NCBI GenBank assembly: GCA_965601925.1
Contig: OZ271854.1
Location: 4,864,001 to 4,928,000 of the forward strand
Length of the DNA stretch: 64,000 nt
Direction: 5' to 3'
Source of the DNA: Alkalispirochaeta sp.
GTDB lineage: Bacteria > Spirochaetota > Spirochaetia > DSM-27196 > Alkalispirochaetaceae
The position numbers were made by a program, and so were the translations under genes. Position 1 is the first letter of the stretch; every line of letters starts with the position of its first letter. Positions 35,025-56,198 of the stretch are shown here, in pieces. Below the pieces are notes generated by a model that was given only the letters and a program-made list of their open reading frames with translations, ran no database searches and was not told where the DNA came from.

Positions 35025-35885
35025 ATGGACCGAACCGCGGCACCCGGCCACCGGGACCGGCGTTACGTGGACGAGGATCGCAATGCAGGCGTACAGGGAA
35101 CGGCGATCATTGCCGCGGACCGCAACGCCGTACAGGAGGAGCTGATACACCTGATCGAGGCCGGCGGCCTTGCGCCAAGTGCCGGCGACGACACGCAGCT
35201 GCGCCGGGCGGTAGAGGCGATCGCGGTACGCGAAGCGTTGGCGATGCCCCCGATCGGTACGATCTGGATGTACGACGGCGCCGGCTGGGTCGACAACGTG
35301 ACGCTCCCGGGCTGGTACGCCTGCATTCCGGAAAACGAAGACGGCGGTGCGTCCGGCCTCTCCTTCGGCATCGTGTCGATGGTCGACCGATTTGTGATGG
35401 GTCGTGGGAACGCGGCGGTAGGCGCGGTGGGCGGGACCAACTCATATCAGCTAACGGCGGGGCAGCTCCCTTCGCATACGCACACAATCAACCACGACCA
35501 TACGGCGTTCACGTCGGGGGGCGAGAGTAGGGATCATTCTCATTCGGTGAGTGGAAGTGTTAATGGCAGTGGCTCGCACAACCACTGGGACGGCTTTCGA
35601 CATTCTTACGGAAACTCCGGTGCGTATGTGTATGCAATGTCCGGTAATCAAGGAAGTATTGGAGTTACGTACTCAAATACAAGCTCCGTGAGCTACATGG
35701 CGAGAACATCATCCACGAGCCACTCCCACACTTGGTCCGGCAGCTCAGGCGGTCGCTCCGCCGGCCACACTCACGCGATAAACGTCCCGAACTACGCCGG
35801 TAACTCAGGCGGCACCGGCGGCGGCCAGACGATCGACAACCGTCCGGCCTTCTACTCGATGGTATTCATCAGAAAGTGCGTGTAG
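35025..35885 (+). CDS. Tail fibre, anchor class B, with collar-like segment and HxH-rich tip
   Basis: Mu gp49-like N-terminus (GT.I.A..RNAVQEELIHLIE..GL.P...DDTQL); PIGTIWMY; LPSHTH, HSH and HTH; ends DNRPAFYSMVFIRK. Confidence 0.8.
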   Translation: MDRTAAPGHRDRRYVDEDRNAGVQGTAIIAADRNAVQEELIHLIEAGGLAPSAGDDTQLRRAVEAIAVREALAMPPIGTIWMYDGAGWVDNVTLPGWYACIPENEDGGASGLSFGIVSMVDRFVMGRGNAAVGAVGGTNSYQLTAGQLPSHTHTINHDHTAFTSGGESRDHSHSVSGSVNGSGSHNHWDGFRHSYGNSGAYVYAMSGNQGSIGVTYSNTSSVSYMARTSSTSHSHTWSGSSGGRSAGHTHAINVPNYAGNSGGTGGGQTIDNRPAFYSMVFIRKCV

Positions 35886-35904
35886 CGATTAAGGAGAGTC
35901 CACG

Positions 35905-36459
35905 ATGAAGGTGATTTCGATACTGAACAACGAGATGGTGATTCGCGAGCAGCGCCGGTCGGTCGATCGCGACGCTGACATGTTGACGGTGTATCTCTCG
36001 ATAGAGGCGAAGTTCGGCACGGTGGTAAACGCCGACACACGGCGAAAGCAGCGCCAACTCACCTTTCAGGTCGAGAAGGCGCGCCATCCGGAAGTGTGGG
36101 CGGCGGTCAAGGACGCGGACAACGGCGCGTTGATGGACGCGATAGCGGACCAATTGTCGGCGGTACTCCCGGTCGTCCGGCAACACCGCATGGAAGAGGA
36201 GAATCCCGTTACCCGCGAGGCGATCCAGGAGACGGTCGACGGGGAGGTCCTCTTCCGGTACCGCGACGAGGACGAGGCGGCGTTTAGCGCAGCCCGGGAG
36301 CGCACCGGACACGCACCGACGCAGGTACCGCAACCCAACAGCCAAGAGGCGGCGTTGGAGGAGCTCAAGGCGCAGTATCCTGTGGAGGAGATAGACGATA
36401 TGGTGAGCCATTTGCTCGCCATCGGCGTCGAGGCGCCGCTCCGGGCGGTCGGCGTCTAA
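35905..36459 (+). CDS. Hypothetical protein directly after the fibre gene (possible fibre chaperone)
   Basis: AAGGAG RBS; 184 aa; TAATG coupling to the next ORF. Confidence 0.6.
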   Translation: MKVISILNNEMVIREQRRSVDRDADMLTVYLSIEAKFGTVVNADTRRKQRQLTFQVEKARHPEVWAAVKDADNGALMDAIADQLSAVLPVVRQHRMEEENPVTREAIQETVDGEVLFRYRDEDEAAFSAARERTGHAPTQVPQPNSQEAALEELKAQYPVEEIDDMVSHLLAIGVEAPLRAVGV

Positions 36460-53357: not shown

Positions 53358-53444
53358 ATTATTTCTCTTGAAAAATAATGATTGAAACAAAGCTTGAGAA
53401 ATAATCACAACCTTACACTATCCTTAGTTTTTGACCGTGTCAAA
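53358..53444. promoter_or_regulatory. Divergent control region with repeats and a minus-strand sigma70-like promoter
   Basis: AT-rich; TTTGAC-CGT-GTCAAA (53430-53444); inverted ATTATTTCTC/GAGAAATAAT; minus-strand TTGACA-N17-TAGTGT. Confidence 0.6.
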
Positions 53445-53585
53445 GAGAAATCACCCCTTTTCAATGAATTCTTATTTATACAACTCGCAATATCCAACTG
53501 CTTGACAGGCCGCCCGAGTATGCCCGATTCTCGAAGCTGGTAGTCCGACGACAGCCGGCCGCAACGATGCAGCCGCGGAGGCTTT

Positions 53586-56198
53586 ATGAACCGCAGACCC
53601 GGCCAAAACCGCAATCGCCGCTCGCAACCACCGCTGTACGTAGACATCGACGTTCGTACGGAGCGCCGCTCCGCCGCCGGTGGTGGCGATGTCACGAAGA
53701 GGCGTCAAGACGCCGCAAGCCCCTCCGCGAAAACGGAAGCGGTACGTGACACATCCGCCCTCCAATACATCGTGAAACGCCATACCGGCGGAACCGTTTC
53801 GGGCTGGGTCGTGGTGCGCCACACCGACGGATCGATCGCCGTCGACCGCCTGGGCCGATACGGCGACGACATCACCGTCATCGACCGCGTTGACGGCATA
53901 ACCATGCGCTACCCCGATTCGGGAAGAGAACATCCCGCCGCCTTCGTCGCCCGTGTATTGGGAATCGACACTCGAGTCGTCGCGACCTCGCTTAAACGCG
54001 CAGGGTGGGAACGGCTCGACTACGACGGTGGGTGGTCGAATGCGCCCGACGGCGAGCCGTGGATTCTCGAAGGGTCGGATCACGAAGCGGCAGATGCGGC
54101 ATTTCGACGCATCGGCGGAGCGAGTACCTCGGGTAGGGACAACGCCCCCGACTACTCGCCCTCCGGCGAAACCGTGACGAAGCGCGGCATTCCCCTTAAC
54201 TCGCCGCCAAACACATTCGATAGTGAGGTCGCCCGCTCCCGGTCGCAATACGCCGGCCTCAAGGCGACCTATCGCACCCGCACGGGCGAGGAGCATCGTC
54301 GTTTCGGCGAGGAGATCATGGCGCGCGAGGACTCTCAACGCATCGTCGGTCGCGCCGGAAAGAGCGATCGACGCGGCACGGCCCGCACCGTGTCGGGAAC
54401 ACGAGAGCAACCGAGCGGCTCGCGGTCCGACGCGAACGGTGGGGACGATATACCGTCCTCGCCCACACAACGCCGCGATCCGGTCGACCTCGAGCGCGAA
54501 GCCTTTACAGTCGCTACCGGCTGGGTCGTCGTGCTGCGAACGAGCGGGCAGGTAATTGTCGACCGTAGAACGAGTTCCGGTAACGATGTCACGGTTGTTG
54601 ATGCGGTGCGCGGCACGACGGAGACGCATCGCTATCCAGGCAGCGGGAGTCGGACGGGGTTTATCTGTACGATTCTCGGACTTCCGTTCGATCCGACTCA
54701 CCCATTAGACAATCCCGTTAATCAAGGTTTAAGCGGAGCCGGTTGGACTTGGCATTCGGAGACCGATACGTGGACCAACTCACGGTCCGATACGGCGTGG
54801 ACATTATCCCGCATCCAACTCGATGAGATGCAGGTACAATCCTACTCCGCCGAGCAGGATGGGGGGGTAGGAGCAGAAGAGTTATCATCTTTAAAAATAG
54901 ATATCGCAATCCGGAACGCTCTCGCCGGCCTCGAAAGAGTAAGCTTCTTTAACGCAGGATCTACGGATCTTCACGAATTCGGAAGAATGCTCGCAAACGA
55001 ACCGAATCAACATACCGTTGAGCTCATTTCTGATCTGGCAAATCAACGGTCTCAGGAAGCTTCCGAGTACTTATTGTCTAGCGATACCGAGTCTGAAATC
55101 GGCGTCTGGAACTACGAGATTGCAAACTATGAATACCACCGATCACAGTTTTACCTCACCCTCGTAGCGGTCTTTCGAGGAACCATACCACCGAGTACTG
55201 CCGCGCCCGCGCGTCAAACGCTGGATATCGCATACCAGCGCCTCTCTTCGTTTCTACGGGACCGCAATCAGAACCCATTTCACGCTTCAGATGCGTCCAC
55301 GACTTTGAATACCTTGCACTATCGAGAAGCATCCTCAAGGCGAAACATCGAGACAGACTCCCCACCGGAGATTGACATTGTCATGGCGACGATCGGTGAG
55401 TTGCGAAGACTCATAACCCTGAGTGAACCCTTAGATGCGGAGTTCGAGGATCCGAACGATCCAAATGTCCAAAGACGAGTCGAAGCGGTTAACTTTCGAA
55501 TAGTCACGATGATGCTGGTACTACTCAGTACAGCGATCGTGAATCGTCACGGTGAGCTCCGACGATCATTGATAAGAGTATTTCCAGTGTCTCTCCGGTC
55601 GCACGAGCACTTGGATGCATTTCGTGAACTGGTAATACGACGAAATCCCGTAGACTACGAAAACTACCGAAGGCGCACCAACCAGAGGCTTGCGCGGATA
55701 GCACTGACCGCAGCACTAAGTTTGGCATTGGCCAAGGTGGCTATCGCGTCGAGTCTCATAAAAACTGTTAGCGTATCCGGTGCCTTGATCGGTGGAACTG
55801 TCGCATGGACGGGAACCGCATTAGGAGGAGGGTCTCGAGAGCAACGAATTCAAGCTGCCGTAATCGGGGCGATACTTGGCTCGTTCAATTTCGTACCGGC
55901 TCAAAACATGCCTGGACTAATGAGCTATCTAAGCCAAATTGGAATCGAGGCGGTGACCGGTGCCCTATCGTCTCTTTTTGGTCAAGTTTTTAGCGGAGCA
56001 GGTTCCATTGATTTTGACCATATAGGCGCGTCAGCTCTCCTTTCCGGCATAGCTAGCGCCACAAACTTTTCCAGTCTATTTCGTCATTTAGCCGATAATC
56101 GGATCATAATTTTAAATGAATTGGGAAAATTCACAGAATTAACATCGAATGTTATAGCTTCTAGAATCTTATTTCTCATGAGTGAAAGCCGAGAATGA
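53586..56198 (+). CDS. Large hypothetical protein with a duplicated N-terminal domain and hydrophobic Gly/Ala-rich C-terminus (candidate toxin/cargo)
   Basis: GGAGG RBS; two GWVVV...DR...G.D.TV.D.V.G....RYP.SG repeats; AT-richer 3' half. Confidence 0.7.
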   Translation: MNRRPGQNRNRRSQPPLYVDIDVRTERRSAAGGGDVTKRRQDAASPSAKTEAVRDTSALQYIVKRHTGGTVSGWVVVRHTDGSIAVDRLGRYGDDITVIDRVDGITMRYPDSGREHPAAFVARVLGIDTRVVATSLKRAGWERLDYDGGWSNAPDGEPWILEGSDHEAADAAFRRIGGASTSGRDNAPDYSPSGETVTKRGIPLNSPPNTFDSEVARSRSQYAGLKATYRTRTGEEHRRFGEEIMAREDSQRIVGRAGKSDRRGTARTVSGTREQPSGSRSDANGGDDIPSSPTQRRDPVDLEREAFTVATGWVVVLRTSGQVIVDRRTSSGNDVTVVDAVRGTTETHRYPGSGSRTGFICTILGLPFDPTHPLDNPVNQGLSGAGWTWHSETDTWTNSRSDTAWTLSRIQLDEMQVQSYSAEQDGGVGAEELSSLKIDIAIRNALAGLERVSFFNAGSTDLHEFGRMLANEPNQHTVELISDLANQRSQEASEYLLSSDTESEIGVWNYEIANYEYHRSQFYLTLVAVFRGTIPPSTAAPARQTLDIAYQRLSSFLRDRNQNPFHASDASTTLNTLHYREASSRRNIETDSPPEIDIVMATIGELRRLITLSEPLDAEFEDPNDPNVQRRVEAVNFRIVTMMLVLLSTAIVNRHGELRRSLIRVFPVSLRSHEHLDAFRELVIRRNPVDYENYRRRTNQRLARIALTAALSLALAKVAIASSLIKTVSVSGALIGGTVAWTGTALGGGSREQRIQAAVIGAILGSFNFVPAQNMPGLMSYLSQIGIEAVTGALSSLFGQVFSGAGSIDFDHIGASALLSGIASATNFSSLFRHLADNRIIILNELGKFTELTSNVIASRILFLMSESRE

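Follow-up and report, generated by a model that had tools for sequence, protein, structure and literature searches.

A headless Mu-type contractile tail locus with a miniature tape measure in Alkalispirochaeta: a candidate domesticated injection system

A stretch of 64,000 nucleotides from the genome of Alkalispirochaeta sp. (assembly GCA_965601925.1, contig OZ271854.1, positions 4,864,001 to 4,928,000; hereafter the window, to which all coordinates refer unless given as genome positions) contains an operon for a contractile phage tail that is not accompanied by head genes. This raises the question whether the locus is what is left of a prophage or a tail that has been put to use by the bacterium. 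A first-pass annotation of the sequence had proposed a domesticated phage-tail machine of a distinct type. In the analysis described here the headless tail and sequence signs of selection were found, the ancestor had to be corrected and the locus proved to be patchily distributed. The explanation that we favour, and that we regard as somewhat better than an even bet, is a domesticated, very short contractile injection system, as predicted from its genes.

The tail operon lies on the minus strand (53277 to 38010) and consists of 17 genes with zero internal stops, most of which overlap or are separated by at most 60 nt. The single, tightly coupled and open operon of the first-pass annotation was thereby confirmed, as was its own AT-rich control region (53278..53585), which directly precedes it and is common to the operon and a divergent gene of 870 amino acids (aa). 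The G + C content (GC) of this region falls to 0.29 over 150 nt, which belongs to the lowest 0.01% of windows in a genome of 60% GC; a sigma-70 scan of it gave no minus-strand site. When each open reading frame (ORF) was compared with Pfam and PHROG, as the annotation had advised, tail families were matched by the sheath, tube, chaperone, gp43, gp44, gp46, two gp47, two gp48 and three fibres; the gp45 match was weak and the terminator-like gene had no family. The first gene (86 aa; 53017..53277) bears a weak likeness to a small gene between the capsid and head-closure genes of related phages (phmmer E 0.007 and 0.014 against the upstream ORFs of 21 loci). It is followed by the terminator-like protein (206 aa; 52356..52976), for which a family search gave no match and which was assigned by its slot and by 22-33% identity to the same-slot gene of related phages. 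The Mu gpL-type sheath (496 aa; 50869..52359) was identified by phrog_165 (E 7e-91) and by its place in a tree, and is 28% identical to Mu gpL. Next come the tube (127 aa; 50486..50869; phrog_4699, E 1.2e-15), of which members 98-99% identical occur elsewhere, and the tail assembly chaperone (49769..50466; Phage_TAC_7) with a predicted -1 frameshift extension. A slippery heptamer and an open -1 frame indicate that the frameshift site and the extension are intact, and a weak match to P2 GpE (E 0.007) was obtained.

The gene for a predicted tape measure of 147 aa (49345..49788), discussed below, separates the chaperone from the gp43-like tube initiator (48035..49348; DNA_circ_N, E 1.4e-14; phrog_184). 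The baseplate genes then follow: gp47-like baseplate J copy a (370 aa; 46865..47977; Baseplate_J, E 1.9e-35), gp48-like wedge protein copy a (46260..46868; Pfam/PHROG), two paralogous fibres of 358 aa (45178..46254) and 343 aa (44106..45137) that both match phrog_9777, the gp44-like hub (42861..43931; three GpP/Gp44 domains; phrog_177), the gp45-like spike (206 aa; 42235..42855), the gp46-like wedge protein (41833..42231; GP46, E 1.4e-12), gp47-like baseplate J copy b with an insertion (487 aa; 40373..41836; Baseplate_J, E 8.6e-41), gp48-like wedge protein copy b (39797..40363; Pfam/PHROG), with members 89-93% identical in other assemblies, and a fibre of 596 aa with seven FG-GAP repeats (38010..39800; FG-GAP_2, E 6e-89). 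The spike gave weak Mu_Gp45 (Pfam E 0.03) and Apex matches, yet it could be aligned with 13 phage spikes at 29-41% identity; a sequence search of the PDB returned nothing for it or noise. Every structural part of a Mu-type tail was present and open, and the head module and the head-closure gene were missing. The earlier gene list, which comprised the sheath, tube, chaperone, gp43 to gp48 with both pairs and fibres, was correct in these parts and had overlooked the tape measure. Since contigs of runs X1 and X2 reproduced 38713-54400 in one piece with zero differing letters, an assembly artefact was ruled out; these runs possibly represent the source sample, so that the agreement is a check of the layout and no independent support. 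The read depth over the tail locus in the same runs equalled that of the flanks.

Whether a cognate head is encoded elsewhere could be examined in the whole genome, which is 96.7% complete, consists of a single contig (5.05 Mb) and contains no further copy of the tail genes. Among the 30 ORFs scanned over 34983-61344 with Pfam and PHROG, no head, terminase, integrase or transposase family was found. Genome-wide, zero matches were obtained with profiles of related phages (terminase, portal, two capsid types, decoration and head closure). Searches for the GpA terminase and the lambda portal, the controls of which were matched, were likewise negative, and the genome-wide search for Mu-like heads that the first-pass annotation had recommended did not find the Mu capsid family (control matched once). 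The tail is headless with respect to cognate heads, as had been claimed. The statement that the window lacks head and integrase genes also held over the part scanned (34983-61344); the genome does contain an HK97-type terminase, portal and capsid (genome 3.71-3.72 Mb), but inside a separate prophage. This complete-looking element (L145-L147; genome ~3,695,600-3,731,000) has an integrase and an amidase and, besides the three head genes, carries a tape-measure-like gene of 773 aa and encodes a beta-propeller tail protein of 1660 aa. A split prophage with its head at a distance was ruled out for cognate heads; the HK97-type element has its own tail, tape measure and amidase.

The origin of the tail was sought among 73 sheath homologues, about 60 of which form a close group at 39-80%. 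The surrounding loci are phages with a lambda-type terminase, portal, Clp-type protease, decoration and capsid, as verified by PHROG on two of them. All 38 phage loci whose sequence extends 2.5 kb or more beyond the sheath on the upstream side contain capsid or portal genes; some of these loci had also served to build the head profiles. In these phages the head-closure gene precedes the terminator; it is missing here. In three loci (L023, L066 and L068) an ORF of ~200 aa that resembles part of baseplate J was seen just upstream of the terminator. In the tree, four sheaths, including the present one, form a clade (support 1.0) nested among phage sheaths. Because the relatives carry such heads and the profiles gave zero matches in this genome, we predict as the ancestor a spirochaete phage that combined a lambda-type head with a Mu-type tail and whose cognate heads are gone, and not a Mu-like transposable phage. 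The description of the locus as Mu-derived was therefore abandoned, its closest relatives being spirochaete phages with lambda-type heads and not Mu itself.

The slot between the chaperone and gp43 holds 147 codons, as against the 421-624 aa of the complete tape measures of phage relatives (41 rows, which include several elements filed twice). A profile made from 15 phage tape measures had the 147-aa ORF as its only match in the genome (E 7.7e-7), and alignment revealed that the phage-type N-terminal motif and the C-terminal 45 residues are kept. The linker comprises 68 residues, 71% of which are Ser, Gly, Ala, Pro or Thr. One to four hydrophobic segments were present in each of the eight phage tape measures checked; the 147-aa protein has none. 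Four close short homologues (P0075-P0078) of 118-147 aa are 67-77% identical. Their ends are the best conserved parts (82-93%; N motif 14/15 and C-terminus 37-38/45 identical), and their linkers are 46-68% identical with in-frame indels. Two other candidates were dropped: P0087 is likely to be a fragment of a long tape measure and P0088 a repeat artefact. An assembly labelled Spirochaetales encodes a partial sheath, the tube and a short tape measure on one contig of 3980 nt and gp46 together with gp48b on another; compared with the locus, its tube is 99%, its gp46 92%, its gp48b 89% and its tape-measure linker 68% identical. Contigs of equal size suggest that a second tube (98%) is linked to P0077. 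In the four-sheath clade substitutions avoid conserved columns (25/155 versus 26/61, p 7e-5). Because the tube is 99% but the linker 68% identical, the ends are kept, the changes in the sheath avoid conserved columns and the frameshift site is intact, the sequences indicate that the tail was under selection once the tape measure had shrunk. Decay would be suggested if the deletion were recent; the short form, however, is common to several assemblies. Scans of a viral collection with the single sheath and the short tape measure yielded no relative.

In the mechanism that we propose, hub, spike and wedges would assemble a baseplate in which the C-terminus of the tape measure docks. Tube and sheath would grow along the flexible linker until the terminator caps them at about 6 rings, which would correspond to a tail of ~20-25 nm, perhaps 40 nm. 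An extended polypeptide measures ~0.35 nm per residue, from which we estimate that up to ~40 nm could be reached if the linker were fully stretched. Mu has 30 rings for a tape measure of 690 residues (PMC11915804), and scaling from this number would give the ~6 rings assumed here. The tail lengths per tape-measure residue reported elsewhere, 0.145 nm (PMC5099701) and 0.16 nm (10.1101/2025.01.29.635557), would predict 21-24 nm for 147 aa. By comparison, syringacin is described as ~142 nm long and the R2 pyocin as 100 nm (PMC4542187). The short tube would, more speculatively, pierce an outer membrane and either deliver the 870-aa protein or simply puncture, and release might depend on lysis genes of other genome regions.

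Two gp47-gp48 pairs are present here, as against a single gp47 in each of the 26 phage loci where this gene is complete, and there are four fibres with two types of N-terminus. The 358- and 343-aa fibres have type A; type B is found in the FG-GAP fibre and in a fourth fibre of 286 aa (35025..35885, plus strand; PHROG tail fibre matches), which over 63 aa has 63% identity with the N-terminus of the FG-GAP fibre and lies behind an AT-rich putative promoter (34860..35024, plus strand; minimum GC 0.39 per 150 nt) in a cassette of its own. In phage loci type A fibres occur with an a-like gp48 in 10/10 and type B fibres with a b-like gp48 in 9/13 cases; for Mu it is described that the fibre N-terminus binds gp48 (PMC11915804). 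The two gp47 copies group together with modest support (0.80), and both a duplication and a capture from a second phage are compatible with the sequences of the pairs. Two wedge types and four fibres would allow variants that recognize different cell surfaces. An invertible fibre cassette was considered and rejected; the 25 longest pairs listed, of 126, included no long near-perfect inverted repeat, and there was no recombinase match.

From the control region of the operon the gene of the 870-aa candidate cargo diverges (53586..56198, plus strand). The protein has two N-terminal repeats and a C-terminal half that is predicted to be helical with two hydrophobic stretches, and its codon use is foreign. 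In a homologue, P0082, residues 1-405 are common (65%) and are followed by an M23 peptidase and other domains. This common N-terminus with a swapped C-terminal half resembles the layout of polymorphic effectors, as judged from two sequences. The N-terminal repeat has no other copy in this genome, and the N-terminal region was found neither in 98 other genomes of the order nor in the viral-collection scan. Family, fold and PDB sequence searches assigned nothing to the protein (the PDB search gave blanks or noise), and the predicted structures were poor, with a pLDDT (predicted local distance difference test) score of 34 for the whole protein and 41 for its repeat. The fold search returned three baseplate proteins of one kind at E 0.8-2.4, which was not taken as evidence; the Atlas gave weak leads (DUF637, and PT-TG at 0.83). 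A BLAST link to a phage gene in L005 did not reappear on repeat and was dropped. The ORF next to the 870-aa gene overlaps a duplicated cyclase end.

To place the locus on the chromosome, its surroundings were compared with those of congeners. In 10 of the 11 congeners examined, nrdR and tRNA-Met adjoin the large gene that ends at 61393. Because the site is empty in these ten, the region of ~34800-61390 (26.5 kb) is regarded as an island, which starts on the 5' side of tRNA-Met(CAT) (34709..34782, minus strand; ARAGORN). The eleventh congener (G009, L142) has two different genes at the same tRNA-Met site. Host-type genes had been assumed on both flanks; on the right side, however, the island continues through the 870-aa gene, the cyclase and two low-GC genes, and the synteny of the host is taken up again at 61393. 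These further island genes (56956..61344) encode a GAF-adenylate cyclase, a beta-propeller protein and an SH3 protein. The latter two (58770-61344) are low in GC, have hydrophobic N-termini and show strongly foreign codon use. The 3' end of a host gene is duplicated (58598-58709 and 61395-61506; 97%), and so is that of the cyclase (56323-56470 and 56954-57105; 76%). At the level of sequence, such duplicated gene ends show serial cassette insertions, by which the island was apparently built in layers. On the other side, two unassigned genes of 184 and 120 aa (35905..36821, plus strand) with host-like codon use and no usable family or Atlas match lie 3' of the 286-aa fibre. They are followed by a BrnT/BrnA-like toxin-antitoxin pair (36916..37493, plus strand), in which CopG_antitoxin was over the cut-off and BrnA matched weakly, and the toxin of which we take to be BrnT; the pair has a paralogue at genome 2.18 Mb.

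A second contractile tail without a head was detected at genome 153,048-165,366 on the minus strand (L148:8048-20000 and L149:1-366). It is unrelated, of the E217/Pam3 type, and comprises a DUF3383 sheath, a 463-aa gene in the tape-measure slot, an amidase and a fibre. Its first genes, a small ORF and one for a terminator-like protein, lie behind an AT-rich stretch, directly after host genes (fpg). Its sheath was absent from the 98 other genomes of the order. We infer that it is a conventional tailocin, which could supply lysis. Outside the island the genome has three amidases. A lone Amidase_2 lies among host genes at genome 4,262,089-4,262,763, and no phage genes were seen around it by eye. 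A segment of the FG-GAP fibre is 39% like the fibre of the second tail (genome 154,563-154,889), and its repeats are 32-37% like two other genes (genome 523 kb and 2,655 kb), which suggests module exchange. A 14-mer at 34896-34909, upstream of the fibre cassette, recurs in the genome only at 165,402, upstream of the second tail, and was reached in 1/400 local shuffles; as it is A/T-rich, perhaps a -10 element, and was noticed post hoc after three pairs had been compared, it is a lead only.

Several observations weigh against a domesticated injection system. The sheath group was not found in any of 16 congeners, and in 98 other genomes of the order it was absent apart from one distant prophage sheath. 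Within the class a close sheath occurred in 6 of 400 other sampled genomes, and the two that were examined further have heads. The short tape measure was found in none of 400 sampled genomes of the phylum, many of which were searched in part. Of all the observations this patchiness speaks most strongly against a domestication over long vertical descent; a narrow lineage would agree with it, as would an island that moved horizontally. The first-pass annotation had looked to shared synteny and a ratio of nonsynonymous to synonymous substitutions (dN/dS) below 1 in relatives for support, and to a patchy distribution with relaxed selection as the mark of a decaying prophage. The distribution is indeed patchy; the sequences carry signs of selection, and relaxed selection was not seen. 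The tRNA-Met site is an insertion hotspot, and no lysis gene, regulator or ATPase was recognized in the island with Pfam, PHROG or further scans. Cognate heads were not found in this genome, and the relatives with a short tape measure are known from tail-side DNA. Two additional short homologues, P0083 (132 aa) and P0084 (123 aa), are 39-44% identical, stand on contigs of less than 1 kb, and P0084 is without a clear N motif. The dN/dS of the paralogues (0.16-0.40; ~0.4 for the two type A fibres) may predate domestication. The codon adaptation of tube and sheath to the host (100th and 96th percentile) favours domestication, but it partly reflects GC content and is often high in major phage proteins anyway. 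The link of the 870-aa protein to the tail, which makes it a candidate cargo, consists of adjacency and one homologue of unseen context. For TP901-1, extrapolation predicts that no tail is left at 127 tape-measure residues (PMC5099701); 147 aa is close to this point and may be too short to template a tail.

The most serious rival, though we hold it to be rather improbable, is a decaying prophage from which the head, the replication genes and most of the tape measure were deleted and the rest of which has not yet decayed. The absence from the congeners, the hotspot of serial insertions beside the tRNA, where the toxin-antitoxin pair could slow loss, the lack of a recognized lysis or regulator gene in the island and the other phage-derived pieces in the genome would all be expected of such a remnant. 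However, the deletion in the tape measure is common to lineages with linkers of 46-68% and tubes of 98-99% identity, and neutral decay would not spare the tube; nor would it readily agree with 17 operon genes free of internal stops and an intact frameshift site. Selection on tube and sheath is equally expected in a live element, and it is conceivable, if unlikely, that the short tape measure arose in a still mobile one, an unusual short-tailed phage or a satellite that supplies the tail and takes its heads from others, of which only this copy lost its head and mobility genes. Upstream regions of the short-tape-measure relatives are unseen, the sheath clade (77-92%) diverges as deeply as nrdR within the genus (73-83%), yet congeners are without the locus, which suggests horizontal movement, and satellites that supply their own tape measure are described (10.1101/2025.01.29.635557). 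Against this, the viral-collection scans for the short tape measure found no relative, all 41 rows of complete phage tape measures have at least 421 aa, the hydrophobic segments are gone here, no integrase or replication gene was recognized and the read depth equals that of the flanks. We give little credence to a cell-associated or intracellular system, in which the tape measure would be a nucleation plug that does not set length and the tail would act inside the producer or from its envelope. No linked lysis genes were recognized, lineage II extracellular contractile injection systems (eCIS) have been described as generally without tape measure homologues (PMC6899500), and cytoplasmic systems are reported in Streptomyces (PMC12237407); but no membrane anchor or ATPase was recognized in the locus, four receptor-binding fibres point outward and the terminator is kept. 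The least probable is an anti-phage decoy, whose compatible parts and too-short tape measure would mix into related phages and yield non-infectious virions. Spirochaete assemblies often contain such phages, it is precisely the docking ends of the tape measure that are kept, the chaperone pair is intact, and PLE11 Rta is a known case of interference with tail assembly by way of the tape measure (10.1101/2025.01.29.635557). A whole tail with two wedge sets and four fibres is more than a decoy would need, though, and the proteins of the locus are only ~25-57% identical to those of the phages found.

The domesticated, very short injection system may be part of something wider, which we put forward as a doubtful proposal: a family of stub-length injection systems in spirochaetes that was independently domesticated from a phage with a lambda-type head and a Mu-type tail, replaced a helical tape measure by a disordered leash, chooses its target by two interchangeable wedge-fibre modules and carries a polymorphic payload with a common N-terminal repeat, one version ending in a peptidoglycan peptidase, while a second tailocin perhaps shares its regulation and supplies lysis. 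If particles are made, they would be a natural test of the minimum length of a contractile tail and of whether tape measures can dispense with a helical middle part that inserts into membranes. If the reading is true, tailocin-like weapons would be extended to Spirochaetota by a further independent domestication of a Mu-type tail, and a Mu-type tail with protein cargo would make the distinction between R-tailocins, which form pores, and eCIS, which inject effectors, less sharp. A genome with two unrelated headless tails is a case study of tail co-option.

In the literature searched, from which subscription papers were largely absent, no tailocin or contractile system was found described in Spirochaetota, and no tailocin with a truncated tape measure. 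A term search of a review (PMC10598620) found spirochaetes unmentioned; a preprint (10.64898/2026.08.24.746745) has Spirochaetota only as a distant taxon for prediction, although its supplements may list such loci. Among known systems the nearest relatives are the spirochaete prophages with lambda-type heads and Mu-type tails (L004-L083), in which the order from terminator to gp43 is the same and the sheath is 33-57% identical. They differ in having a terminase, portal, protease, capsid, head closure and long tape measures, and a single gp47. The parts also correspond to those of Mu (terminator, sheath, tube, chaperone, tape measure, gp43-gp48 and a fibre on gp48), which has a head, the much longer tape measure, one gp47, one gp48 and a distant sheath (PMC11915804). 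By gene content the locus is neither a PVC/Afp-type eCIS nor a type VI secretion system (T6SS), as the first-pass annotation had concluded. Afp (antifeeding prophage) and PVC (Photorhabdus virulence cassette) eCIS are likewise headless and contractile and may carry protein cargo, but they are described as built from T4-related parts with an AAA+ ATPase (PMC6899500), whereas the present tail is of the Mu type with no ATPase family among the 30 ORFs. The Afp16-type terminator PF14065 gave no match in a genome search whose control also gave none. The T6SS protein VipB was not found in the genome (control matched), and a membrane complex, sought in the locus only, was not found there. The 870-aa protein and P0082 resemble polymorphic toxin systems (PMC3482391) in that their N-terminal regions correspond and their C-terminal halves are entirely different; the 870-aa protein shows no known trafficking or toxin domain, and no immunity gene was identified. 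The locus would work most like an R-type tailocin, with which it shares the full contractile set of sheath, tube, baseplate, spike and fibres and the lack of cognate head, packaging and replication genes. It is not a plain member, because R-type tailocins have a full-length tape measure, with tails of ~100 nm or more, and a conserved chromosomal site across related species, whereas this site is empty in most congeners. The closest parallel is syringacin of Pseudomonas syringae, likewise a headless, co-opted Mu-like tail that lost its head and replication genes; it is reported to occupy a conserved site, trpE-trpG, together with regulators and candidate lysis genes (PMC4542187), and no lysis or regulator gene was recognized in this patchy island. 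What distinguishes the Alkalispirochaeta locus from it is an independent origin from spirochaete phages, the 147-aa tape measure, the doubled wedge-fibre modules and a candidate cargo gene.

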